Below, one piece after another: positions 7,226 through 19,914 of a stretch of DNA of 64,000 nucleotides (positions within the stretch are counted from its first letter, which is position 1; every line of letters begins with the position of its first letter). The position numbers were made by a program, and so were the translations under genes. The stretch comes from Candidatus Tumulicola sp. (GTDB taxonomy: Bacteria > Vulcanimicrobiota > Vulcanimicrobiia > Eremiobacterales > Eremiobacteraceae): NCBI GenBank assembly GCA_035601835.1, contig DATNNM010000018.1, forward strand, positions 133,890 to 197,889. Direction: 5' to 3'. The notes below the pieces were generated by a model that saw only the letters and a program-made list of their open reading frames with translations, made no database searches and was not told the DNA's origin.

Positions 7226-8014
7226 ATGGCAAAACAGGTCGGCTTCTTGACCGACGTCAGTCTTTGCATCGGCTGCAAGGCATGCGAGGTCGCATGCAAA
7301 GAGTGGAATCAGCTTGCCGGCAACGAGCCTGCCTTCAAGGAAGGGCTCGACAATACCGGAGACCTCGACGCCGAGAATTGGCGCCACGTCAAGTTCATCG
7401 AGCAAGAGACGCCGGAGAATCCCAACAAGCCGGTCATGCTGCACATGATGAGCGACGTGTGCAAGCATTGCGCGGATGCGCCGTGCCTCAACGTGTGCCC
7501 CACGAACGCGATCGTGCGCACGGAATTCGACACCGTCTACATCAAGCAGGACACGTGCAACGGATGCCGCGACTGCATCTCGGCGTGCCCGTACAGCGTC
7601 ATCGGCTTCAGCAAGGCGACCGGCACGGTGCACAAGTGCACGTTCTGCTACGACCGCCTGCAAGCGGATTTGAAACCCGCCTGCGCCACGGCGTGCCCGA
7701 CTCAATCCATCAAGTTCGGCGACTTGGCCGACATGCGCGCCGAAGGGGTGGCGCGAGCCGAGACTCTCAGAGCCCAGGGCCACGAAAAGGCGCAAGTCTA
7801 CGGCGACAAAGAGTACGGCGGCCTGCACTCCGTGTTCGTGCTGATGGACAAGCCCGAGGTCTACGGCTTGCCGAACGCCGCCAACGCGGTGACGTTGAAC
7901 AAAGGCAACAAGCCCGGCTACTTTGGGATGCTCGCCACGGCGGTGATCGGAGCGATCGTCGGGCTGGTCGCGCTGCGCAACAACGGCATGCGCAAGGACA
8001 AACAAGCCCAATGA
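7226..8014 (+). CDS. fdnH: Formate dehydrogenase iron-sulfur (beta) subunit with C-terminal TM anchor
   Basis: Multiple 4Fe-4S Cys clusters (CIGCKACEVAC, CKHCADAPC, CNGCRDCISAC, CTFC). C-terminal hydrophobic helix LATAVIGAIVGLVAL. Confidence 0.85.
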   Translation: MAKQVGFLTDVSLCIGCKACEVACKEWNQLAGNEPAFKEGLDNTGDLDAENWRHVKFIEQETPENPNKPVMLHMMSDVCKHCADAPCLNVCPTNAIVRTEFDTVYIKQDTCNGCRDCISACPYSVIGFSKATGTVHKCTFCYDRLQADLKPACATACPTQSIKFGDLADMRAEGVARAETLRAQGHEKAQVYGDKEYGGLHSVFVLMDKPEVYGLPNAANAVTLNKGNKPGYFGMLATAVIGAIVGLVALRNNGMRKDKQAQ

Positions 8015-8895
8015 TGCCCGAGCATTTCGTCCGGCCGCCCGATTGGGGCTGGTGGATCCTGCTCTACTTCTTCTTTGGCGGACTCAGCGGCGGATCGTAC
8101 ACGCTCGGGACGCTGCTGCGGCTGCGCGGATCGGCGCAAGACTCCGGCGTTGCGCGCACGGCGTTTATCGTCAGCTTTGTCACCCTGATCCTGTGCCCCA
8201 TCTTCCTGACCATTGATCTCGGCAGACCAGATCGCTTCTCGCACATGCTCTTCGGCGACAACGGCATCATGTTCAAAGCGTGGTCGCCGATGTCGGTGGG
8301 CGCGTGGGCTCTGCTCATCTTCGGCATCTTCTCGTTCTTCTCGTTCCTCGAATCGCTCGAGCAGGACGGCAAGCTGAAAACTCGCGTCTTCTCCGGATTG
8401 CTCGGCGGCGCGTTCGGCAAGCTGTTCATGCTCGTGGGCTCGGCTTTCGGCTTGTATATCGCAGGCTACACCGGCGTATTGCTCAGCGTCAGCAGCCAGC
8501 CTGTGTGGAGCGACACCTGGATGCTCGGCGCGCTGTTCATCGCTTCGGCGCTCTCGGGCGCCGCGGCCGCGATCGCGTTAGCGGCGCCCAAGCGCGCGGA
8601 CGCTGCCGCATCGGAAGACACGGTTCACCGGCTGGCCAGCGCCGACAGCGGCTTCATCGTCTTGGAATTGATCGTGCTGGCGTTGTTCCTCATCACGCTC
8701 GGCAGCGTGGCGGCACCGGTGATCGGCGGCGGCTACGGGATCCTGTTCTGGGTCGGGGCGGTGGCGCTCGGCATGCTCGTGCCGCTCATCGCGCACTGGT
8801 TCGCGCGCAGCACGTCGCCGGCTTTGATATTCTCACTCGTGCTGCTGGGCAACCTGGCCCTGCGCGCAGTCATCATCTTCGCCCCGCAAAGCTAG
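8011..8895 (+). CDS. NrfD/PsrC-type integral membrane subunit of the formate dehydrogenase complex
   Basis: ATG 8011 overlaps the fdnH stop (ATGA). Polytopic membrane protein starting WWILLYFFFGGLSGGSY, typical of the NrfD family. Only this 3' part of ORF 7264..8895 is taken as real. Confidence 0.75.
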   Translation: MMPEHFVRPPDWGWWILLYFFFGGLSGGSYTLGTLLRLRGSAQDSGVARTAFIVSFVTLILCPIFLTIDLGRPDRFSHMLFGDNGIMFKAWSPMSVGAWALLIFGIFSFFSFLESLEQDGKLKTRVFSGLLGGAFGKLFMLVGSAFGLYIAGYTGVLLSVSSQPVWSDTWMLGALFIASALSGAAAAIALAAPKRADAAASEDTVHRLASADSGFIVLELIVLALFLITLGSVAAPVIGGGYGILFWVGAVALGMLVPLIAHWFARSTSPALIFSLVLLGNLALRAVIIFAPQS

Positions 8896-11159
8896 CTTTG
8901 CAGGCTCGTTTGGGCCTGCAGGACGCGGCTGAGTTGGTCGCGGTCGACCGGCCTGCCGAACAAGTAGCCTTGCATGAGATCGCAACGCTCCTGTTCGAGG
9001 AACGTGGCTTGTTCTTCTAGCTCGATGCCCTCGCCGACGACCGCCATGCCGAGGCCGTGCCCCAGTCCGATCACGGCACGCGCGATCATGTTGGATTCCA
9101 TGCGCGTGCCGATGTCCTTGACGAACGAGCGGTCGAGCTTCAAGTGCGACGCGTTGTACTGCGTCAGATACGCGAGCGAGCTGTAGCCCGTGCCGAAATC
9201 GTCGATCGCGACGTTGGCACCCATGGCGCGCAGCTCGTTGACGACTTCGACGGTCTTCTCGGGCTTGCTCATCGCCTCGCTCTCGGTGATCTCAAACGTC
9301 AACTTGGAGAGATTGATGCCTGTCGGGTCGACGATGCGCTTGATCCTCTTGGTGAAATCTTTCTGCACGAACTGACGGCCGGAAAGATTGAGGGCCATGC
9401 CGAGATCCAAATATCCCTCGCTCTCGAACTCGCGAATCGTCGTGCATACCTGATGCAGCACCCACTCGCCGATTGGCTCGATCAGTCCGGTGTCGACTGC
9501 GATGCCGAGGAAGCGGGCCGGCGCCAGCAAGCCATGTCTCGGATGCTGCCAGCGCAAGAGCGCTTCAACGGAGTCGAACTCGCGCGTACCGCTCCGTACG
9601 ATGGGCTGGAACACCAAACGCAGTTCGTCCCTGTCGAGCGCTTGGCGAAGGTCGTGCTCGATCTCCAGATGTTCTAGGGCCTCGGAGTGCATGGATTGCG
9701 CGAAGAAGCGGAATGTGTCGCGGCCAATCTCTTTGGCCTTGTACATCGCCGCGTCGGCATTGCGCAGCATCGTTTCCGCGTCGGTGCCATCGAAGGGGTA
9801 GACGCTGACGCCGATGCTGACCGAGAGTTGGAACTTGCGCTCACCCAGTTCAAAAGGCTGACGGCATGTCTCCATAATGCGTTCAACGGCAGGAGTGATG
9901 TTGTCGACCGAGCCCGCATCCGAGAGGACCACGATGAATTCGTCCCCACCTGATCGCGCGACGGTGTCTTCTTGGCGCACGCTGCTCACCAAGCGGCCCG
10001 CGAGCGTGACGAGCACCTCGTCGCCGGCGCCGTGCCCCATCGTGTCGTTGATGCTCTTGAAATGGTCCACGTCGAGGAAGAGCAGCGCCACGTGGTCACT
10101 GCGCCGGGCCGCAAGAGCGATCGCCTTCTCCAAGCTGCGGCGCAGCAAGAGGCGATTGGGCAGATCGGTCAGAGGATCGTGGACCGCGAGGTAGCCCAGC
10201 CGCTCTTCGGCTCGCCGCTGGTCGGACATGTCGGTGATGGACACCACCACGCCGTTGAGTTTGCCGGAGTGGTCGTAGACCGGCGCGGCTGCGCCCGACA
10301 CGATGACGCGCGGACGCGTCGGCGTCTGGATGATGAACTCCTGATGGGGCGTGGCCTTGCCGGTGGAAAGCGCGCGCGTCAGAATGCCCTCGGTCGGCGG
10401 CATCGGCTCGCCGGTGATCTTGAAGAATTTCCAGGTCGACGGAAGTCCTTTCACGCCGATGGTGCGCTGCAGATCCACGCCGGCGATCGCGGCGGCCGCG
10501 CTGTTGGCTTGCCGAATCGTGCGATCGGCGGTGAAGAACAGCAGCCCTTCGCTTGCGCACTCGAATATACGGCTCAGTTTGTCCTCGCTCAGGTGCAACT
10601 CGCGCCTGGCCCTCAGCACTCCGATCGCCATGCTTAATTGGCCCGCGATCGCGCCGGCGAACAACGCTATGTGTTCTGCCGGGATTGCCTTTGCCGGCAC
10701 GGCCAAGAGCAATCCGACGAGTTGCTCGGCGATCCGCAGGGGCACGACCAACGCCGAGTCCAGCGATGCGGCGCGAAGCACGCTCTGAGCGGGTCCCTTT
10801 CCTTTAGCTCGCAGCGCTTTTGCAATTTTCACACGGCTGATGCTCTGCATCAAGCCCGCGTCGTGGACTGATTTGATCAACGCGGCCTTGTTCGCGAAGC
10901 CGTACTGGGCCAGGAGCTCGGAGTCGCCCTTCTCGTCGCGACTGAAGAGAGCCGCTTTGACGATGCCGCCCGAGCTGAGGCATTCCTCGAATGACTCGCT
11001 TGGTAATGCCGTGACGTCGGGATCCATCAGCCGTGCAGCGCATTGACCAAGCGCCGACAACTCGGCCTCGCGCAGCGACAAACGCTTCAGAAGGTCGGCG
11101 TTGAGGCCGGGGGGTCGCTTGCCGCGCTTGACGACTCGTCGAGCGCCGGGCGCTCTCAT
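8892..11159 (-). CDS. GAF-PAS-GGDEF-EAL c-di-GMP turnover protein
   Basis: GGDEF motif SGGDEFIVV. EAL motifs EALLRW, DDFGTGYSSL, KLDRSFV. Last gene of the coupled signalling operon. Confidence 0.85.
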   Translation of the reverse strand: MRAPGARRVVKRGKRPPGLNADLLKRLSLREAELSALGQCAARLMDPDVTALPSESFEECLSSGGIVKAALFSRDEKGDSELLAQYGFANKAALIKSVHDAGLMQSISRVKIAKALRAKGKGPAQSVLRAASLDSALVVPLRIAEQLVGLLLAVPAKAIPAEHIALFAGAIAGQLSMAIGVLRARRELHLSEDKLSRIFECASEGLLFFTADRTIRQANSAAAAIAGVDLQRTIGVKGLPSTWKFFKITGEPMPPTEGILTRALSTGKATPHQEFIIQTPTRPRVIVSGAAAPVYDHSGKLNGVVVSITDMSDQRRAEERLGYLAVHDPLTDLPNRLLLRRSLEKAIALAARRSDHVALLFLDVDHFKSINDTMGHGAGDEVLVTLAGRLVSSVRQEDTVARSGGDEFIVVLSDAGSVDNITPAVERIMETCRQPFELGERKFQLSVSIGVSVYPFDGTDAETMLRNADAAMYKAKEIGRDTFRFFAQSMHSEALEHLEIEHDLRQALDRDELRLVFQPIVRSGTREFDSVEALLRWQHPRHGLLAPARFLGIAVDTGLIEPIGEWVLHQVCTTIREFESEGYLDLGMALNLSGRQFVQKDFTKRIKRIVDPTGINLSKLTFEITESEAMSKPEKTVEVVNELRAMGANVAIDDFGTGYSSLAYLTQYNASHLKLDRSFVKDIGTRMESNMIARAVIGLGHGLGMAVVGEGIELEEQATFLEQERCDLMQGYLFGRPVDRDQLSRVLQAQTSLQS

Positions 11160-12610
11160 CCCCGTTTCCTCGGCGCTCTTCGCTCTCCAATACGTTCACC
11201 GGCACGACGCTGCCGGATAAGGCCCAGGGCGAGGGCGATGGCTTCGGAGACCAGTTCGATGAAGTGGTCGTAGTACTCGTCCACCGGTTGCATGGGCACC
11301 GTCACCAACGCGCCTGCCAGCGAGCCTTCGAGCAGCAACGGCGTCACCGTCATGCGCGCGCAGCCGGCGCCGCGCATCACCGCGGCGTCCGCGCCCTTAG
11401 CTCCCTCGGCCTTCAGCGTCGTCGGGCCGCTGCGGCGTGCGAGCTTCGACAGAAGATCCGGGTGGTTGAAGAACGTCGCGAGACCGGCGCGTTTTCCGAT
11501 CGGACCGAAGCGCGTGGTCAGCTCAAAAGAGTCGCCGCGAGAGAGCGCAAAAATGGCGCCTGATTCGATGCGTGCCGCGGTCATGCAGTCGGCCGCCAGG
11601 GCATCGGGAATCGCTTTTGCCTTGGTCGTCGTGACGAGCTTGGCGGCGCCCGCCAAAAACGCGAATCGGATCTCTTGAACGGCAAGGCGGCGTATGAGGC
11701 GGGCGTTCAACTCGGCTTGCAACTCGGCTTGGCGCAGCTTCCTCGCCGAAAAATCGCTCAGCTCGATCGGTTTGTCTGGAGCGCGCGCCCTGGATCCAGG
11801 CGACGTGATCGCACGAGCGACGGCGTTCACCAATCCTTGAGACTGCGTAGAGCGGACCACGAGCTCGCTTGCCCCTGCCCTCTTTGCGAGGTCTTGGTCC
11901 TCCGGGTCACCGATGACGGCGGAGTACAACAGCACGGGGATGTGCGAGAGTTTGGGATCGCGGAGCACGGCCTCGCACAAACCGAGCCCGTCAAGCCCGG
12001 GCATGAAGACATCCGAGACGACGGCTTGCGAAGGTTTCTCGCGCAAAGATTTGAGAGCCTCGAGTCCGTTGGCCGCCCCGCGGGTCGCAAACCCGGCGGC
12101 CTCGAGGCTGAAGCGCGTGAGCTTCAACTGGAGCGGGTTGTCGTCCACCACGAGGATGGTCTTCGCGCCGGCCACCACCCCGGCGAAGCCAAAGGAATGG
12201 GGTAGGTAGGTGCGCACGACCTCGATGAGCCGCGCGATTTCGACGGGCTTGGCCAAGAAGTCGACAAAGCCGACCTGCACGGCCTTCGCGAGGTCGAGCG
12301 CCGGCTGCAACCCGGACATCGCCACAACCGGCAGGCGATCGCCGCCAGGAATGGCGCGATAGTCGCGTGCGAGTTGAATAGCGTCCGTGTCCTCGATCAT
12401 GAGATCTTGGATGATGAGGTCCGGCAGGGATAACCGAGCGAGGGCCAGAGCTGTGGCTCCGCTGGATGCTTCCTTGACCAAAAAGCCTTCCTTCTCGAGC
12501 GCGATCCGGCAGAGCTTCCGGACGATAGCGTTCCCCTCGACCAGGAGGATGGTCGACGGCGCTGTTGTCTTCGCTTGCGACGCCACGTTAACTCGCCCCG
12601 GGCCCTTCAA
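11156..12610 (-). CDS. Tandem receiver (REC-REC) protein with C-terminal GAF-like domain
   Basis: Two CheY-like blocks (ILLVEGN...DLIIQDLMIED and ILVVDDN...AVVSDVFMPGLDG). 4-nt overlap with the downstream GGDEF-EAL gene. Confidence 0.75.
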   Translation of the reverse strand: MKGPGRVNVASQAKTTAPSTILLVEGNAIVRKLCRIALEKEGFLVKEASSGATALALARLSLPDLIIQDLMIEDTDAIQLARDYRAIPGGDRLPVVAMSGLQPALDLAKAVQVGFVDFLAKPVEIARLIEVVRTYLPHSFGFAGVVAGAKTILVVDDNPLQLKLTRFSLEAAGFATRGAANGLEALKSLREKPSQAVVSDVFMPGLDGLGLCEAVLRDPKLSHIPVLLYSAVIGDPEDQDLAKRAGASELVVRSTQSQGLVNAVARAITSPGSRARAPDKPIELSDFSARKLRQAELQAELNARLIRRLAVQEIRFAFLAGAAKLVTTTKAKAIPDALAADCMTAARIESGAIFALSRGDSFELTTRFGPIGKRAGLATFFNHPDLLSKLARRSGPTTLKAEGAKGADAAVMRGAGCARMTVTPLLLEGSLAGALVTVPMQPVDEYYDHFIELVSEAIALALGLIRQRRAGERIGERRAPRKRG

Positions 12611-12839
12611 CGGGGCCCAGCGTCGCGATGACCTCGCGCTGCGTCTCTTCGATGGTCGCGAGCAGTTGCCGGCCGCTCTTCAAGATATCGTCCAAAAACT
12701 CGCGTTGCTGATCCGTCAATGGCCCGGCCTTGCCATCGCGCAGCAGCTGGGCGAAACCGATGACGGGACCGAGCGGCGAACGCAAGTCGTGGAACATCTT
12801 GTGCAAGGATGCTCGGAGATCGGCCGTGCTATGACTCAC
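12588..12839 (-). CDS. Stand-alone HisKA/DHp-domain protein (no ATPase domain); candidate histidine phosphotransferase
   Basis: H-box FHDLRSPLGPVIGFAQLL followed by a second helix (REFLDDILKSGRQLLATIEE). A GTG at 12839 preceded by AAGGUGAGG is the preferred start. The ORF-track start at 12959 would overlap the upstream REC gene by 131 nt. Confidence 0.5.
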   Translation of the reverse strand: MSHSTADLRASLHKMFHDLRSPLGPVIGFAQLLRDGKAGPLTDQQREFLDDILKSGRQLLATIEETQREVIATLGPVEGPGAS

Positions 12840-13236
12840 GACCCTCACCTTTAGTGTTGGATCGCAGAGCGGCGGGCAAGTACTCGTCGACCTCCGCGAC
12901 AAAACGCTGCGGAACGATCGGTTTTGAGATGTAGCCGTCGAAGCCGGCGGCGAGCGCATGCTCTCGGTCGCCCACCATGGCGGCCGCGGTCACCGCGATC
13001 AAACGCAGTTTCTGCGTCGCAGGATCCGTTTTCACGCGCCGCGCCATTTCATACCCGTCGATGCCGGGCATGCGGACGTCGGTCAGCACGAGGTCGAACG
13101 ATCCGGCCTTGATCGCAGCGACGCCGGCCAGACCATCCATCACAGAGGTGGTGCTGTGGCCGAACGCCTGGAGCAGATACGTCATAAGATGCAGGTTCGC
13201 CTGATTGTCTTCGACGATCAAAATTCTGGCCGGCAT
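12829..13236 (-). CDS. Single-domain response regulator (CheY-like)
   Basis: ILIVEDNQ, DLVLTDVRMPGIDG and ISKP receiver motifs; 135 aa. Confidence 0.85.
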   Translation of the reverse strand: MPARILIVEDNQANLHLMTYLLQAFGHSTTSVMDGLAGVAAIKAGSFDLVLTDVRMPGIDGYEMARRVKTDPATQKLRLIAVTAAAMVGDREHALAAGFDGYISKPIVPQRFVAEVDEYLPAALRSNTKGEGRES

Positions 13237-14390
13237 CAGCGCTTACCGGTGATCGTCAACACGAACCTCGACCCTTTGCCGAACTCGCTCGTGAAATGTA
13301 TTTGGCCTCCCAGCAGCAAGGCGAGCTTGAGGCTCAGGTACAGCCCCAAACCGACGCCACCGAAACGGCGCGTGCTGGACGGATCGACCTGCTCGAAAAC
13401 TTGGAAGAGCCTCGCTTGGTCTTCCTTCTTGATGCCCACACCGGTGTCCGACACCGAAAGATCGACGAGCAGGCTTCCATTCACGCGTCTTTCTGCCAGC
13501 GCGAGTCCGACCGAGCCCTTCTGGGTGAATTTGATCGCGTTGTTGGTGAGGTTGATCAGTATCTGACGCACGGCTCGCCGGTCGGTGACGATCGGCGTGA
13601 TCACTTCCGGCAAGCGTGCCGAGAGTTGCAGGCCCTTCGCTTCGGCTTGCGAGCGCAGCGAACTGGCAACCTCGGCGATCACATCCCGCAGCACGACCGG
13701 TTGGAGATCGAGTTCCACCTTGCCGGACTCGATCTTGGCGAGGTCGAGAATGTCGCTGATCAACGAGAGCAAGTGCTGCGCGCTCGAATCGATGGTCCGC
13801 AACTGCCGCTCCTGCTCCGCGCTCAATGGGCCGGGTAGCTTCATGAGCAACGTGCCGGTGAAACCGATGATCGCGTTGAGCGGGCTTCGCAATTCGTGGC
13901 TCATCGAAGCCAGGAACGTGTCCTTCGCGAGATTCGCGCGCTCGAGTTCCACGTTCTTCTGCTGGAGCGCGTGCTCGACGCGCTTGCGATCCGTGATATC
14001 GCGAATAGCGGTTGAGACGATGGTGCCGTCCGCGGTTTCAATCGGGCTCAGGCTGACCTCAACGGGGAACTCGCTGCCGTCCTTGCGCACCCCGTACAGC
14101 TCCAAGCCGGTGCCCATCGGCCGAGGGTGGGGATCTCCGAAAAAACCGGTGCGGTGTGCCTGATGCTTATCGTCGAAGCGCTGCGGGACCAGCGTCTCGA
14201 CTTTTTGCCCGAGCAGCTCGTCGCGCCGATATCCGAAGATCCTCTCCGCTTGCGCGTTGACGAGCACGATGAGACCGCCACGGTCGACCATGAGCATCGC
14301 ATCAGGAGCAGAGTCGAGCACGGCGACAACGGATTCGTCGAGGACCTGAGCGCGAAGGGGCGTCACGTTGGTACTAGTCCTGCCCGCCAA
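13236..14390 (-). CDS. Cytoplasmic PAS sensor histidine kinase
   Basis: PAS region, H-box SHELRSPLN, N-box LTNNAIKFT, G-boxes DTGVGI and GGVGLGL. 1-nt overlap with the downstream REC gene. Confidence 0.9.
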   Translation of the reverse strand: MAGRTSTNVTPLRAQVLDESVVAVLDSAPDAMLMVDRGGLIVLVNAQAERIFGYRRDELLGQKVETLVPQRFDDKHQAHRTGFFGDPHPRPMGTGLELYGVRKDGSEFPVEVSLSPIETADGTIVSTAIRDITDRKRVEHALQQKNVELERANLAKDTFLASMSHELRSPLNAIIGFTGTLLMKLPGPLSAEQERQLRTIDSSAQHLLSLISDILDLAKIESGKVELDLQPVVLRDVIAEVASSLRSQAEAKGLQLSARLPEVITPIVTDRRAVRQILINLTNNAIKFTQKGSVGLALAERRVNGSLLVDLSVSDTGVGIKKEDQARLFQVFEQVDPSSTRRFGGVGLGLYLSLKLALLLGGQIHFTSEFGKGSRFVLTITGKR

Positions 14391-14679
14391 GAAACGAGTC
14401 TCAAAGGCATGTCCGACCTATGCCCACCGGTCGCTACTCTTCATTGTAGCACCGAGCCAAGCGCCGGGCCTGATACCTATGTACCAGGCGTCGCCTACTG
14501 CCATTCTCGGCATTTTCAGCCTTTGTTCTTAGCCGCGACCACAGCTCACAGGCCGCCTCGCTTCCAAAAAGGGGTTTCTCAGAATGAAGACGGCCTTAAT
14601 GGTAGCCTATCAAGAAAGGCGCTCGTGGCCATCGGTGAACTCCGCAATGTTAAGCCGCTCGCCGGCCCACGCCCGCGGG

Positions 14680-17424
14680 TCAGAAAGCTGTGGGGAACTC
14701 CCCGGCGGCTATTTTCGTCGCTATCTCGATCCGCGACTTCAGGCCGGTCTTGCTGAGAATAACCGACACGTGCAGCTCGATGGTGCGCCGGCTGACATGC
14801 AGGTCCTTGGCGATGTCGCCATTGGTCTTGCCACGCGCGATGAGGTGGGCGACCGCCGTTTCGCGTGGCGTCAGGAAGTTCTTCGGCGGGGTCTTGCGCC
14901 CGGGCCGTAACCCAAGTGATCGCGCGGCCGCCCGCCCCCGGTCGGCGGCTGAATGCGCTTCCATCGCTTCGAACTCGTTGATCGCGGCGACGATCGTCTG
15001 CCGGCTGATCAAACCGAGGCCGGCTTCCAGTCGAAGGTAGGCTCTCCAATACGGGTGTTGGCGCGCATCCGCAGCGCCCAAGAGTCGGGCGCAGCCCACA
15101 GCAAGATTGCCGTCGAAGCGCTTTTGCCAGGCCTCGGCTTCGGCGAAGAGCGGATCCGCGACGCCCCACCCCCGCGCCTTCACGAGGCGAAGCCGCTCAA
15201 GGGCGGCGAGACCTTCTTCGGGCAATCCGAGCCGGTAACTGGTGCGCACGAGCCCGGCGAGCGCCCGGATCTCATGCGCCTCTAGCTCGTCGCCGCCATG
15301 TCTTCCCTCCAGCGCTTCTTCGTATGAGGCGTGTGCGGCTTCAAAGTTCTCTTGGATCTCGCTGACGCTTCCGGCGGTGTAGGCGATGGCGCGCCGCCAC
15401 GTCGGGGGCGGCTCGAGCGATGCGGCCTCGCGCAGACTCGCTTCCGCGCTCTCGTAGTCGCCTAGGAAGGCGTTGAGAAATGCTTGCGCGCACAGCGAAC
15501 GGCACAGGTACACGACGTTGCCGCGATCCAGCATCTTTGACGCGCTGATGTTCAGTCCCAGCGCTTCGCGAAGGCGCCCGCCATCAGACGAAACGCTGGC
15601 GAGGTTGGATTGAAGCAGGGCAGTGATCGCCCGCGGCACTGGTCCGACGACTTGCAGCCCACGGCGGCACCAGCGTTCGTACGCTTCGGTGTCGCCGACC
15701 AGATCGCACAGGAAGCAAAGCTTGGTGCACGTCTGCGCCACTTCGTTGTCGAGCCGCAGCGCGGCGGCTTGCTCCACGACCTTTTCCAGGATGGCGATGC
15801 CCTCGCGCGGAGTCTTCATACGTCCGACCACCACGCCGAGCCACGCCTGCAAGCGCAGCATTTCTCGAGCCGCAGGAGCCGGGCTGCGCAAGCTTAGGCC
15901 CTCTTTCAAAACCGTGCGCGCGCGCTCCAACTCACCGCGACGTTCTCGGGCGGAACCGAGCGCGCACAGCAGCCTGGGGAGTAAGCCGCTATCGGCGGGG
16001 CGCGCTTCGGCGATGGCGCTTTCAAGCAGTGCGACCGCGGTCGTGTCGTCTTGTGCGTCAAACCAAATCGTTTCCGCGTGGCGTCCGTGGACGAGCGCCT
16101 GCACCTTCGCGGAACGGCCATCGGCTTCGGCGTCGAAAACAGCCATCGCCAGGGCCGCTTCCTCGCGCCGGCCAAGCGCGTAGAGCGCGATCGCCGCGCC
16201 GCCCTGGGCCTCCCACTTCTCAGCTTCACCGGGACTCAAGTCTCGCGCGCACACGAAGGCGTTGAGCGCTTCACGAGGTGCGTCGCGGTCAAGGCATTGC
16301 CAGCCGATGCGAATGTTGAGCGCGGCGGCTTCCGCAAAGCGGGCGGCGCTCTCGAGGTGCCGGGCGCGCACCCGCTCGTCGTCGGATTGAGCCGCGAGCG
16401 CCGAGTGGCGCGCGACGCGCTCCTGTTCGTTCATCATCTCGTAGCGGGCGTCGCGCAAGAGCGTGTGGCGGAAGGCGAGGCCGCCCGGCGAGCGGCGCAC
16501 GACGCGCGCCTCGATCAAGGTCGAAGCATGCGCTTTGATCGTGCCGACGGAGAGCCCGGCGAGTCTGGCGAGCCTTTCAAGGGGCAGCGGCTCGACGTTC
16601 GCCGCCAGCCAACCCGCGACGTTCAGCGCTCCTTCGGAGAGGATTTGGAAGCGCTCTGCGAGCGCTCTGCGAAGGTCGGGCGCGACGTCGCCGCCTTCCA
16701 GCGAGCGGTTATGCAGCACGAGTTCCGCGTAGAGAGGATTGCCGCCGGTGAGCGCGTGCAGGCGCGAAGCCGCGGCTTCATCGAGGCGAGCTTCCGGAGC
16801 TAGATGCGATGCGAGTTCGTAGAGGTGTTCGGGCGCGAGGCCGTCGACGTCGAAGCGCGTGGTAAGCTCCGCCCGCTCGAGGTCATTCGCCGTCTTGTCG
16901 ACGTCGTGATTGCCGAGCCGGCTCGCGGCGTGCCAGTGGATCGGCAGATCTTGGAGACGGTCGACCAGAAAGTGGAGCGCCTCCAAGCTGGCCGCGTCGG
17001 CCCAGTGGAGATCGTCGATCTGAACGACCAGCGGACCGCTTTGCAGCGCGATTTCCAAAACATCGCGGATATAGGCGAGTCGATCGCGCTCGCCGGCCTC
17101 CACGATCGCCCGCAGCATGGCCCGTGAGATGCGGCCACGTCGGCACAACAGCCTCGCGGTTTCGATGAAACATTCCAGCGGCTGGCCTTGACCGCTCGGC
17201 AAACAGGACACGTGATAGACGTCTGCCCCGACAGCTTCTAAGCGAGCCCTCGCCTCCCGCAGCAAACGCGACTTCCCGATCCCGGGCTCCCCGAACAAAA
17301 TGCCGGCGTTGCGCTGGTTTGAACACAAACTTTCCAGCAAAAAGGCGCGCCCAACCAGGGGGACCGCCTGTTGTTGCGGCCCCCGGATATGCTTAAGTTT
17401 GCGGAGTTCACTAATGGCTGCCAT
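14680..17424 (-). CDS. LuxR-family regulator with N-terminal AAA ATPase (LAL/MalT-like), TPR-like middle region
   Basis: Walker A GEPGIGKSRLL near the N-terminus. C-terminal LuxR HTH (LTPRETAVAHLIARGKTNGDIAKDLHVSRRTIELHV). Start set at ATG 17424 (MAAISELRK). Confidence 0.8.
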   Translation of the reverse strand: MAAISELRKLKHIRGPQQQAVPLVGRAFLLESLCSNQRNAGILFGEPGIGKSRLLREARARLEAVGADVYHVSCLPSGQGQPLECFIETARLLCRRGRISRAMLRAIVEAGERDRLAYIRDVLEIALQSGPLVVQIDDLHWADAASLEALHFLVDRLQDLPIHWHAASRLGNHDVDKTANDLERAELTTRFDVDGLAPEHLYELASHLAPEARLDEAAASRLHALTGGNPLYAELVLHNRSLEGGDVAPDLRRALAERFQILSEGALNVAGWLAANVEPLPLERLARLAGLSVGTIKAHASTLIEARVVRRSPGGLAFRHTLLRDARYEMMNEQERVARHSALAAQSDDERVRARHLESAARFAEAAALNIRIGWQCLDRDAPREALNAFVCARDLSPGEAEKWEAQGGAAIALYALGRREEAALAMAVFDAEADGRSAKVQALVHGRHAETIWFDAQDDTTAVALLESAIAEARPADSGLLPRLLCALGSARERRGELERARTVLKEGLSLRSPAPAAREMLRLQAWLGVVVGRMKTPREGIAILEKVVEQAAALRLDNEVAQTCTKLCFLCDLVGDTEAYERWCRRGLQVVGPVPRAITALLQSNLASVSSDGGRLREALGLNISASKMLDRGNVVYLCRSLCAQAFLNAFLGDYESAEASLREAASLEPPPTWRRAIAYTAGSVSEIQENFEAAHASYEEALEGRHGGDELEAHEIRALAGLVRTSYRLGLPEEGLAALERLRLVKARGWGVADPLFAEAEAWQKRFDGNLAVGCARLLGAADARQHPYWRAYLRLEAGLGLISRQTIVAAINEFEAMEAHSAADRGRAAARSLGLRPGRKTPPKNFLTPRETAVAHLIARGKTNGDIAKDLHVSRRTIELHVSVILSKTGLKSRIEIATKIAAGEFPTAF

Positions 17425-17649
17425 CGCAAAATCGCCTATTCTGAGTTCGGGGGAGTCGCAGATTCTCTTCGCACAGTGAGGGTGAAATGAAAAAATTTCG
17501 GAGTTTCGTCGTTTTGATGGCAGTTTGTTCGGCGCTTGGGAGCGCCATTGTGGGTTGCACGGGTGTGGGACCCGCTCTTCCAGTGCAGCCATCCCACGGC
17601 ACAGCGCTGCTTCCGGCTGACGTCGTGCCGCAACTGCCCGGTTCCATTC

Positions 17650-18228
17650 ATGTCAGAAAGCAATAGATCACACACCGAGTCGTTCCGAGTGATCGACGGC
17701 CCCCTGACTTTAACATCGGCAAAGCAAGCGCCGGCGGGTAGGCCATTGGATCGCCTGGATGCGATGCTTCTCGAGATGCTGCAGGCAGACGGCCGCGCGA
17801 CCTTCTCGGAGATGGGCGCGCGGGTCGGCCTCAAGCCCTCTACCGTTCACGAGCGGGTGAAACGGATGGAGGCAGACGGCGTCATCGTGCGCTATGCGGC
17901 GCTGATCGACGCACGCGCGGTCGGCATCGGGTTTGGCGCGTTTCTCACGTGCCATGTCGCCGGCGCCGGCCGCGATTTCTTGAAAACCGTTTCCATCATG
18001 CCCGAAGTATGCGAAGTCCACCGGGTGACCGGCGAAGATTCATTCATGCTGCGGGTCATGGCGAAGTCGGCGGCTCATCTCGACGAGCTGGTGTCGCGCA
18101 TCAAGTTGGCTCCGGAGCTGATCAGGACGAAGACGACCGTCGTACTTGCCACACCGTTTGAACGGCCGGGCTTCTCGATCCCAGAAATAGTGAGCGAACA
18201 CAGGCGAACGTTGCGCAGCGTGGGTTAG
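17650..18228 (+). CDS. Lrp/AsnC-family transcriptional regulator
   Basis: HTH block LDAMLLEMLQADGRATFSEMGARVGLKPSTVHERVKRME followed by an AsnC-type effector domain. The start is uncertain; ATG 17650 was chosen. Confidence 0.7.
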   Translation: MSESNRSHTESFRVIDGPLTLTSAKQAPAGRPLDRLDAMLLEMLQADGRATFSEMGARVGLKPSTVHERVKRMEADGVIVRYAALIDARAVGIGFGAFLTCHVAGAGRDFLKTVSIMPEVCEVHRVTGEDSFMLRVMAKSAAHLDELVSRIKLAPELIRTKTTVVLATPFERPGFSIPEIVSEHRRTLRSVG

Positions 18229-18231
18229 GCT

Positions 18232-19914
18232 ATGGCGATGCGACAACTCGCGAGCGGCTACCGCGCTCTGTTCGACTATTCTCCGCTTCCCATGTGGGTG
18301 TACGATCGTCAGACCCTGCGCTTCGTAGACGTCAACAGCGAAGCGTTGCGGCACTACGGCTATTCGCTCGAAGAGTTCATGGGGATGACGCTGCTGGACA
18401 TCCGCCCGGCCGAGGACGCCGCGCGTTTGAAACAGCTCCACGAATCGGCGCAGCTTCCCTTCCGGCGAGTCGGCGAATGGCGGCACCGGAAAAAGGACGG
18501 ATCGATCATCTCCGTTTTGGTGACCGCCAACGAGATCGAGTGGAACGGCCGGCCCGCACACGTAGCCGTCATGAACGACGTCACCGCGCAAAGGAGCGCC
18601 GAGCGCGTCGTCAAGGATGCCGAAGAGCAGATCGCCTTCGTCACCAGCCACGATCTTGTCACGGGCCTTCCGAATACGGCGCTCTTCCTAGACCGGCTTC
18701 ATCTCAGCGTCGTCCAGTCCACCCGTTCGCAAGGTCACCTGGCCGTGCTGTCGGTGCACATCGATAAGTTCAGCATCGTCACCGACACACGCGGCCCGGC
18801 CGTTGGCGATTCGGTGCTGCGCGAGCTGGCCAATCGCTTGAGGGGCGCGCTCAAAGAAGGCGACACGCTCGCGCGTCCGGGCGGCGGCGAATTTCTCATC
18901 GTCATTCCCGGTTTGGAGCGCCCTGCCGATGTGGCGGAAACGGCGCAGACGCTGCTCGCCGCCGTCCGAGCTCCCGTCAATAGAGGCGAGAGCCAATACT
19001 TCTTGACCGCCAGCATCGGCATCAGTCTCCATCATAGCGGCGATCCGCATTTGGACCACCTCATTCGGGATGCGGGCGCAGCAGCGACGCAAGTCAGGGG
19101 GGCGGGCGGCGACGGATTTCAGTTCTTCACACCGGAGATCCACGCGGAGGCCGTGCGCCGCCTCTCAATCGAAAGCGAGTTGCGCCAGGCGCTCCAGCAC
19201 GGCCGTTTCGAGCTCGTCTATCAACCCGTGCTCAACTCGACGACCAAGGCCACGGTGGGCGCCGAAGCGCTACTTCGGTGGAACCATCCGACCCGCGGCA
19301 TCATATCGCCGATGGACTTCGTCCCGGTCGCCGAAGCCGCCGGTCTCATCGTGCCGATCGGCACGTGGGTGCTTCGGCAGGCGTTCGCCATGGCCGGTCA
19401 GTGGCAGAGGCAGGGGCGAAAAGACGTCGGCATCGCCGTCAACGTGTCGCCGCGTCAACTCCAGCAGCCGGACTTCCCTAAGGTGGTCGAGGAGGCTATC
19501 GCCGACAGCGGCATCGCCCCGGAGCAATGTATTTTTGAGATCACCGAATCAACGCTTGCCACGGAGGGTGAGTCCAATCGCGTTCGTTTCCTGGCGGACC
19601 TCGGCGTGAGGCTGGCGATCGACGATTTCGGCACGGGCTACAGCTCGCTTGGGTACTTGAAACGTTTCCCGATCTACTCGCTCAAGATCGATAAGTCGTT
19701 CGTCGACAACATCGACACCGACAGCTCCAATCGGGCGATCACGCAGGCCATCATCAAGCTCGCCACGACGTTCGGATTCCATACCGTGGCCGAGGGCGTG
19801 GAGACGCGCGAGCAAGCGCGTATCCTTTCAGAGCTTGGTTGCACGATGATGCAGGGCTACTATTTCGGACGGCCGATGTCGCTGACGTCCTTTTTGGAGA
19901 CGCTTCAGGCTTAG
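18232..19914 (+). CDS. PAS-GGDEF(degenerate)-EAL protein
   Basis: N-terminal PAS. The GGDEF site reads GGGEF. Intact EAL motifs (EALLRW, DDFGTGYSSL, KIDKSFV). Confidence 0.85.
   Translation: MAMRQLASGYRALFDYSPLPMWVYDRQTLRFVDVNSEALRHYGYSLEEFMGMTLLDIRPAEDAARLKQLHESAQLPFRRVGEWRHRKKDGSIISVLVTANEIEWNGRPAHVAVMNDVTAQRSAERVVKDAEEQIAFVTSHDLVTGLPNTALFLDRLHLSVVQSTRSQGHLAVLSVHIDKFSIVTDTRGPAVGDSVLRELANRLRGALKEGDTLARPGGGEFLIVIPGLERPADVAETAQTLLAAVRAPVNRGESQYFLTASIGISLHHSGDPHLDHLIRDAGAAATQVRGAGGDGFQFFTPEIHAEAVRRLSIESELRQALQHGRFELVYQPVLNSTTKATVGAEALLRWNHPTRGIISPMDFVPVAEAAGLIVPIGTWVLRQAFAMAGQWQRQGRKDVGIAVNVSPRQLQQPDFPKVVEEAIADSGIAPEQCIFEITESTLATEGESNRVRFLADLGVRLAIDDFGTGYSSLGYLKRFPIYSLKIDKSFVDNIDTDSSNRAITQAIIKLATTFGFHTVAEGVETREQARILSELGCTMMQGYYFGRPMSLTSFLETLQA

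Follow-up and report, generated by a model that had tools for sequence, protein, structure and literature searches.

The second histidine of a multistep phosphorelay is, to our knowledge, generally taken to lie either on an Hpt domain or on a kinase-derived protein that retains a domain resembling the catalytic and ATP-binding (CA) domain, such as Spo0B and ChpT. A locus in Candidatus Tumulicola sp. raises the question of whether the bare helical hairpin of a histidine kinase, the dimerization and histidine phosphotransfer (DHp) domain, can take this place with nothing attached to it. The DNA analysed, here called the window, is a stretch of 64,000 nucleotides (nt; contig DATNNM010000018.1, positions 133,890 to 197,889) from an assembly of 2.57 Mb in 18 contigs with approximately 98% completeness; G+C in the sampled region of the window is 60-68%. 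Five open reading frames (ORFs) follow one another on its minus strand, encoding a PAS sensor kinase, a single-domain receiver (REC), a DHp-only protein, a REC-REC-GAF protein (gene 4) and a GGDEF-EAL protein (gene 5). The original prediction, made from the sequence alone, read them as a coupled His-Asp-His-Asp phosphorelay ending in cyclic di-GMP (c-di-GMP) enzymes, and the ORF list and Pfam agree with it on the positions and the domains of all five genes.

On balance we favour, with moderate confidence, the view that the operon encodes a His-Asp-His-Asp relay in which a bare DHp dimer supplies the second histidine. The course of events that we infer would begin with autophosphorylation of a soluble PAS kinase at His165. 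From there the phosphoryl group would go to Asp53 on the single receiver, a stand-alone protein of the type found in hybrid kinases that is encoded here by a separate gene. The DHp-only protein, as a homodimer forming a four-helix bundle, would then accept the group at His17, replacing an Hpt domain, Spo0B or ChpT, and would pass it to the REC-REC-GAF protein, most likely to the first of its two receivers (REC1). The latter protein has neither an enzymatic nor a DNA-binding output; its coiled coil and GAF domain would act on the paralogous GAF domain of the coupled GGDEF-EAL enzyme, and the balance between synthesis and breakdown of c-di-GMP would be shifted.

The DHp-only gene and its relatives

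The product of the third gene (12588..12839, minus strand) is 83 residues long and matches HisKA in Pfam and nothing else (E 2e-11, covering positions 7-56 of the 66 in the profile; score 44.5 bits, cutoff 26.9). Its H-box is FHDLRSPL, with His17 encoded at 12789..12791; the core HDLRSPL follows the pattern H-[ED]-x-x-[TN]-P with Ser at +4 and, together with the hairpin, places the protein in the HisKA family (PF00512). It is an ATPase-less module with a conserved histidine, as a candidate second histidine (H2) of a relay has to be. An AlphaFold2 model based on 17 homologues (pLDDT 90) consists of helices 5-34 and 43-74 and nothing further, the first helix being broken at residues 21-22, at Pro22. 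In the PDB, Foldseek matches the model best to the DHp domains of GacS, RetS and ERS1, with E-values of 0.07 or worse, as expected for a hairpin of only 60 residues. Searches of Pfam and NCBIfam gave no match to the Spo0B or HPTransfase profiles, which places the protein outside those families, and a Pfam search of the five operon proteins found no Hpt domain (PF01627).

There is evidence that this small gene is maintained. A word-indexed search returned seven stand-alone metagenomic homologues of 70-84 residues, 76-88% identical and containing HisKA only; most of the relatives lie on short metagenome contigs. In the DHp alignment 39 of 84 columns are invariant, those of the H-box included, and dN/dS (Nei-Gojobori) is 0.24-0.55 for the DHp gene, compared with 0.18-0.32 for the receiver and 0.22-0.30 for the kinase. 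The alignments indicate purifying selection on a gene kept as a stand-alone ORF. When 1.84 billion representative proteins were scanned exhaustively with a profile, the family grew: the best single-domain matches are stand-alone proteins of 79-112 residues (P0091, P0128, P0143, P0171, P0195, P0213, P0161, P0164 and P0168), one of the distant ones being annotated from Kofleriaceae. Identity to these distant relatives falls from 57 to 40%. The phospho-acceptor histidine is invariant in all 17 aligned stand-alone homologues; an acidic residue at +1 (mostly Asp) is nearly so, and Ser or Thr occupies +4 in most members, with Ala in P0195.

The gene order is also conserved. Contigs that carry the close homologues show a STAND-LuxR regulator, PAS kinase, receiver, DHp and REC-REC genes, with the same 11-nt overlap of the receiver and DHp genes; recurrence of this order and overlap in independent metagenome contigs puts the arrangement beyond chance. 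Of six further contexts retrieved, five have the DHp gene beside a receiver gene or overlapping it, and often it is flanked by two of them; the DHp gene of L037 is isolated. The most informative context is L034, in which a PAS-PAS kinase is followed by REC-REC, DHp and REC-REC-GAF genes and then by a Crp-type regulator; its kinase, first receiver, DHp protein and gene 4 product are 63, 52, 43 and 45% identical to those of the window. As regards the synteny check that accompanied the original prediction, the block of kinase, receiver, DHp and REC-REC-GAF genes recurs at 43-63% identity, and these contexts of distant homologues imply that the four-gene block is old. Elsewhere the DHp gene lies between two receiver genes (L035), with a hybrid kinase and an NtrC-type regulator preceding them in L040; between an NtrC-type regulator and a receiver, again with an 11-nt overlap (L038 and L039); behind a PAS kinase and a receiver, with the same 11-nt overlap and followed by unrelated convergent genes (L033); or behind a gene for a GGDEF protein (L036). 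In these contexts stand-alone DHp genes are coupled repeatedly to receiver genes.

Within the operon the junctions are tight. The kinase and receiver genes share 1 nt (TGATG), the receiver and DHp genes 11 nt, where aaGGTGAGGgtcGTG provides a Shine-Dalgarno-like site and the start, and genes 4 and 5 share 4 nt (ATGA). Overlaps of 1 to 23 nt had been predicted at every junction, and those of 1, 11 and 4 nt are borne out; the one of 23 nt between the DHp gene and gene 4 is not. It requires the TTG start at 12610, which is not preceded by a ribosome-binding site. The gene calls in databases (476 residues) and the aligned N-termini of relatives favour GTG at 12586, which is probably the true start; it lies 1 nt past the DHp stop, so that the two genes would not overlap by 23 nt.

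Two fusions join DHp to receivers in one chain: P0169 is DHp-REC-REC without a CA domain, and P0165 is DHp-PAS-HisKA-CA-REC. Among the matches listed, the closest full-length relatives of the DHp-only protein (L042, L043 and L045) are kinases, each with one receiver as its partner. The DHp-only protein is 41% identical to the DHp domain of the adjoining kinase and, among the matches listed, scores higher with the DHp domains of other kinases (80-86 bits) than with that of its neighbour (56 bits); a recent duplication of the neighbour's DHp domain was rejected on both counts. The stand-alone form is rare, with no small stand-alone DHp ORF among the matches listed from 200 other genomes of the class, that is, one genome in 201. 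Within the host genome there are ten HisKA matches, of which only 12588..12839 is stand-alone, and a single Hpt match, located inside a 754-residue ORF elsewhere, with no stand-alone Hpt protein. By this tally the Hpt-less kinase and receiver pair has no other obvious second-histidine partner.

Proteins of other designs also came to light. P0219 (568 residues) has a tandem DHp, of which copy 1 has the histidine and copy 2 an Arg in its place, followed by a receiver and then a complete kinase. Proteins of approximately 890 residues with two matches to the DHp profile were considered as relay fusions and rejected: they are tandem double kinases, with HisKA-HATPase_c twice per chain, and form a sizeable family of approximately 860-920 residues (P0089, P0090, P0093, P0095 and others) that ranks high in HisKA profile searches because both domain scores add. 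P0086 (556 residues), P0088 (293) and P0106 (203) consist solely of three to six tandem DHp-like repeats, in each of which the acceptor histidine is replaced by Phe (SF[NK]LR[TS]), and the N-terminus of P0086 is hydrophobic; to judge by their sequences, they look like a family of histidine-less DHp-repeat proteins. In L032, an ORF at 7548-8711 encodes a 387-residue protein with a strong HisKA match (193-260) and no HATPase_c match. Genes for REC-REC, REC and a homologue of REC-REC-GAF (36% identity) lie downstream of this ORF, whose product may be a further CA-degenerate transmitter in a related cassette.

Kinase, receivers and the c-di-GMP enzyme

The kinase (13236..14390, minus strand) has both the acceptor histidine and the intact ATP-binding CA domain expected of the first histidine component, H1. 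Pfam finds PAS, HisKA (E 7e-21) and HATPase_c (E 2e-22); its H-box is SHELRSPL, with His165 encoded at 13896..13898, and the N, G1, F and G2 boxes can be read intact in the translation. The receiver (12829..13236, minus strand; 135 residues, Response_reg E 4e-25) is canonical at every active-site position (Glu9-Asp10, Asp53, Thr83 and Lys105), carries an AVTAxAM motif and lacks an output domain, and in these respects is an intermediary receiver (D1). In NCBIfam the kinase core and the receiver are nearest to parts of hybrid kinases, for example BarA and TorS.

What the kinase might sense is suggested by its PAS domain (13956-14390, minus strand), which is closest to the haem-PAS structures of FixL (E ~1e-17, gapless alignment) and also matches PDB 10jx, a multi-sensor kinase entered in 2026 (E 5e-22). 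The proximal histidine of FixL aligns with a histidine of the kinase PAS domain, as would suit a sensor of the FixL or DosP/DosC type; in contrast to FixL, Arg206 and Arg220 are not kept, being Gly and Leu in the alignment, and the domain is only a candidate for haem binding. By its likeness to FixL the kinase could receive a haem-bound gas or redox signal, and an oxygen or redox input may be taken as a lead only. DosP couples a haem-PAS sensor to c-di-GMP turnover.

Gene 4 (11156..12586, minus strand) encodes a 476-residue protein with two Response_reg domains in Pfam, which leaves the C-terminal third unassigned; this third is read here as a coiled coil and a GAF-like domain. Its AlphaFold2 model (pLDDT 76.5) has receivers at 12-127 and 143-261, a long helix spanning 276-320 and, at 328-469, an alpha/beta domain. 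The top Foldseek match is PleD, with its tandem receivers, and receiver domains dominate the full-length fold search. The active-site positions are Glu17-Gly18, Asp61, Ser91 and Lys113 in REC1 and Asp148-Asp149, Asp192, Ser222 and Arg245 in the second receiver (REC2); the phospho-acceptor Asp is present in both, and neither acidic/Lys set is fully canonical. Orthologues are known from L034 (45% identical), which is nearer to canonical receivers than the protein of the window, and from L030 (P0010, 64%). When the GAF part was used by itself in a word-based search, the 64% orthologue was the sole match; the genomes of family- and class-level relatives that were searched contained no REC-REC-GAF orthologue, and a contig scan with the protein found unrelated receivers only.

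By pairwise scores the receivers fall into two similarity groups. The ‘upstream’ group comprises the single receivers of the window and of L033, the first of those in L034 and the one upstream of the DHp gene in L035, which share AVTAxAM; the receivers paired with the kinases of L042, L043 and L045 resemble it. The ‘downstream’ group comprises REC1 of the window and of L034 and the downstream receivers of L035 and L040, which share NPxxRK, AxSG and FxDxLxKP.

The C-terminal domain of gene 4 aligns at 28% identity (E 3e-13) with the first 190 residues of the GGDEF-EAL protein, and on this alignment the two genes have paralogous GAF domains. A profile built from six sequences gave weak PDB hits that are mostly GAF domains, the best six (E 0.0035-0.24) all being GAF-containing, and the pattern of secondary structure in the gene 4 model is compatible with the GAF fold. 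Pfam GAF_2 was matched by four of the six profile members (best E 5.5e-7), the gene 4 copy of the window on its own remaining unmatched. The label ‘GAF-like’ originally given to gene 4 therefore draws its backing from the profile rather than from a Pfam match of its own, and is reasonable, although weakly supported.

Gene 5 (8892..11159, minus strand) encodes a 755-residue GAF-PAS-GGDEF-EAL protein, identified by Pfam (a weak GAF_2 match, PAS, GGDEF E 8e-51 and EAL E 2e-69) and NCBIfam. With GGDEF at 404-408, the RxxD inhibitory site (I-site) RQED at 395-398, EAL at 532-534, and DDFGTGYSSL, KLD, EGIE and QGY, it has the active-site, I-site and EAL motifs of a predicted c-di-GMP enzyme. The link from gene 4 to this enzyme would rest on translational coupling and on the shared paralogous GAF domain.

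A relative that lacks the upstream genes throws light on this output. L030 (GCA_936414105.1) has the same neighbourhood, with the STAND-LuxR regulator, a pair of Lrp-type and second GGDEF-EAL genes, and formate dehydrogenase downstream; the leader runs directly into gene 4, and the kinase, receiver and DHp genes are absent. Since the four-gene block is kept in L034, it is simpler to suppose that L030 has lost this trio. The GGDEF-EAL orthologue of L030 is 61% identical and bears an extra N-terminal receiver (REC-GAF-PAS-GGDEF-EAL), whose helix-1 and strand-4 motifs, judged by eye, are like those of the downstream group. A receiver of the REC1-like type would on this account be tied to c-di-GMP output. 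It was also considered that a receiver had moved from the GGDEF-EAL protein to a stand-alone gene; this was rejected, as the L030 receiver shows only 27% identity to the single receiver of the window, compared with 61% for the rest of the protein. In P0010 (L030 10001-11419), REC2 has Gly at the position of the phospho-acceptor Asp and reads as a dead adaptor receiver, as in PleD.

Possible roles of the DHp-only protein

The kinase-receiver-histidine-receiver logic of the original prediction is upheld by the gene order, the conserved ORF, its invariant histidine, the contexts and the fusions; what departs from it is that the terminal receivers are not canonical. This is one of several points that weigh against the relay. 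At the second Mg-binding Asp position REC1 has Gly (Glu-Gly) in the window, L021 and P0010, compared with Glu-Asp in L034, and REC2 has Arg-Ser in place of Lys-Pro, where L034 has Lys. The GGDEF-EAL protein is without a receiver domain and shares just its paralogous GAF domain with gene 4, so that a relay cannot end on it directly; the gene that follows REC-REC-GAF in L034 encodes a Crp-type regulator rather than a c-di-GMP enzyme; and L030 keeps genes 4 and 5 and the leader without the trio, which implies that the two genes are able to work without it. The part of the original prediction in which the relay ends in the c-di-GMP enzyme does not stand as it was written. The remaining points concern the hairpin itself. 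Its H-box has mostly Asp at +1 and Ser or Thr at +4, its closest structural matches include the DHp domains of RetS and GacS, which are known for inhibitory hetero-complexes, and in L033 the trio of kinase, receiver and DHp genes has no downstream receiver.

Some of these points suit other roles better. Ser or Thr at His+4 makes a phosphatase role equally compatible with the DHp sequence, and the protein might act on the single receiver as a transmitter-type phosphatase dedicated to it, or as a sink accelerator. In that case the kinase would phosphorylate the receiver, and perhaps the REC-REC-GAF protein directly, and the DHp dimer would dock on the phosphorylated receiver and catalyse hydrolysis, setting the lifetime of the signal rather than relaying it. 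Retention of the residue in most family members (Ala in P0195) fits this role, as Thr or Asn at +4 of HisKA is needed exclusively for phosphatase activity (Willett and Kirby, PMC3510030). The L033 trio fits it too, and so does the pairing of the L042, L043 and L045 kinases with a single receiver of the upstream type, by which docking of DHp on the upstream receiver appears to be an inherited specificity. According to Zhu et al. 2000, the isolated DHp domain of EnvZ reportedly has phosphatase activity in vitro. Yet the histidine is not known to be strictly required for the phosphatase activity of HisKA proteins, and here it is invariant in every one of the 17 stand-alone homologues. In three independent contexts the DHp gene is followed at once by a gene for a receiver of a second, distinct type, a DHp-REC-REC fusion exists, and the genome has no other H2 module for its Hpt-less kinase and receiver. 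We regard a phosphatase as unlikely, if the most serious of the alternatives.

Alternatively, the DHp-only protein might regulate the neighbouring kinase, either through a DHp-DHp hetero-complex like that of RetS and GacS, which would block or redirect autophosphorylation of the kinase, or as a substrate in trans of its CA domain. The best Foldseek matches, which include the RetS-GacS DHp co-complex 7n0e, could be taken in this sense, but at E 0.07 or worse any DHp hairpin would match those entries. Similarly, the 41% identity to the neighbour's DHp domain has to be set against the higher scores, among the matches listed, of the DHp domains of other kinases. The nearly invariant acidic residue at His+1 speaks for a role of this kind; it is needed for autophosphorylation by a CA domain (PMC3510030). 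A pure inhibitor, however, would not need an invariant histidine, and the recurrent association is with receiver genes, at times with no adjacent kinase (L035, L038 and L039). This role is weaker than that of a phosphatase, and we consider it improbable. That the ORF is a functionless remnant of a recently broken hybrid kinase is more doubtful still. The closest full-length relatives, among the matches listed, are complete kinases, which implies that the protein derives ultimately from a kinase that lost its CA domain, and the rarity of the stand-alone form in the class (one in 201 genomes, among the matches listed) would agree with a pseudogene. Nevertheless, it is not the case that every relative lacks the ORF or has it joined to a CA domain: seven of them, at 76-88% identity, and further lineages, at 57-40%, retain it as a stand-alone ORF with a start and a stop of its own; the dN/dS values of 0.24-0.55 are below 1, the core is almost invariant and the 11-nt coupled overlap is conserved. 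There is no CA remnant behind the ORF, because the next gene begins 1 nt past its stop. The broken-kinase explanation was rejected on these grounds and has, in our estimation, a negligible chance of being correct.

The wider locus and known systems

Directly upstream of the operon lies a gene for a 970-residue STAND-type ATPase/TPR/LuxR-HTH regulator (14680..17592, minus strand; Pfam AAA_16, TPR and GerE). Its product is 67% identical to the L030 counterpart, the gene also precedes the kinase in L021, and by this synteny it is a conserved neighbour of the operon. The intervening leader of 289 nt (14391..14679, minus strand) contains conserved sequence blocks that align with L021 3340-3553, before the kinase, and with L030 9690-10000, before the REC-REC-GAF gene. 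An Rfam search of the leader matched no family, and in a scan for promoters and terminators the counts were not above those of shuffled controls; the approximately 290 nt may hold binding sites for a regulator or a novel RNA element. Beside the STAND-LuxR gene, and divergent from it, are genes for an Lrp/AsnC-type regulator and a second PAS-GGDEF-EAL protein (window 17536-19914, plus strand; syntenic with L030 4063-6723), which brings the c-di-GMP enzymes at the locus to two. At the other end of the operon the ORF coordinates give a 4-nt overlap (8892-8895) between the stop of the GGDEF-EAL gene and the end of a long plus-strand ORF that converges on it (7264..8895) and is presumably the last gene for formate dehydrogenase; a convergent overlap is called in L030 also, and no terminator-like site lies between the two genes.

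Full-text literature searches for natural DHp-only or HisKA-only proteins returned nothing relevant, and as far as we found in the literature a DHp-only relay part has not yet been studied experimentally. We put forward tentatively, and with somewhat less than even confidence, that natural DHp-only proteins of approximately 80-110 residues constitute an unrecognised class of histidine phosphotransferase: bare four-helix-bundle dimers that would replace Hpt, Spo0B or ChpT in split-hybrid-kinase relays, scattered across soil lineages including Kofleriaceae, with the block in the window as one conserved cassette feeding c-di-GMP turnover via pairing of GAF domains. If it is a phosphotransferase, a protein consisting of the DHp hairpin only is a minimal second-histidine module, and loss of the CA domain would suffice to turn a kinase into a phosphotransferase. 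It would follow that small ‘histidine kinase’ fragments adjoining receiver genes, now easily dismissed as pseudogenes, could be annotated by a rule, and that a very small part is available for the design of synthetic relays. L030 and the window would also represent two wirings of one c-di-GMP output, in the former with a receiver fused to the enzyme and in the latter with a separate relay and a receiver-less enzyme, a contrast relevant to the question of how an existing pathway acquires a relay.

We lean towards the view that the DHp-only protein functions like Spo0B and ChpT while belonging to neither family, nor to Hpt, and consisting of a canonical HisKA hairpin alone. The Spo0F-Spo0B-Spo0A relay of Bacillus offers the same succession of kinase, stand-alone receiver, dimeric helical-hairpin histidine protein and terminal receiver, and Spo0B likewise has its histidine on helix 1 of a hairpin, within a four-helix bundle, and is a middle protein that must dock two different receivers (PMC6136694). 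Spo0B differs in having a C-terminal alpha/beta domain that resembles CA and a divergent sequence, whereas the protein of the window is an 83-residue canonical HisKA; and the terminal protein in the window has a GAF rather than a DNA-binding output. The CckA-ChpT-CtrA/CpdR relay of Caulobacter also employs a kinase-derived DHp as histidine phosphotransferase after a receiver of the hybrid type (PMC3433190, PMC9981736), and PhyT is a related kinase-like phosphotransferase (PMC5898713). Both ChpT and PhyT keep a degenerate CA-like domain, in contrast to the DHp of the window, which has neither a CA remnant nor a match to HPTransfase. The receiver of CckA is fused to the kinase, whereas that of the window is a separate gene, and the FATGUY motif of intermediary receivers of the CckA type is replaced by AVTAAAM in the single receiver.

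In the ‘four-component’ RedCDEF system of Myxococcus xanthus, back-transfer from a receiver to a histidine on a kinase-like protein has been shown experimentally (PMC2755868). RedE, however, retains HATPase_c, with a proposed role as RedF phosphatase, and gene order and outputs differ. The isolated DHp domain of EnvZ (‘domain A’) is an engineered laboratory truncation, whereas the bare DHp of the window is a natural, conserved gene. Reportedly (Park et al. 1998, Zhu et al. 2000), the EnvZ hairpin dimer interacts with its receiver, is phosphorylated in trans and has phosphatase activity. On the output side, the structure that the tandem receivers match best is PleD (REC-REC-GGDEF), in which a phosphorylated and an adaptor receiver control c-di-GMP output; unlike PleD and GGDEF-EAL proteins with a fused receiver, the window has its tandem receivers and its c-di-GMP domains on two proteins, which share only the paralogous GAF domain.

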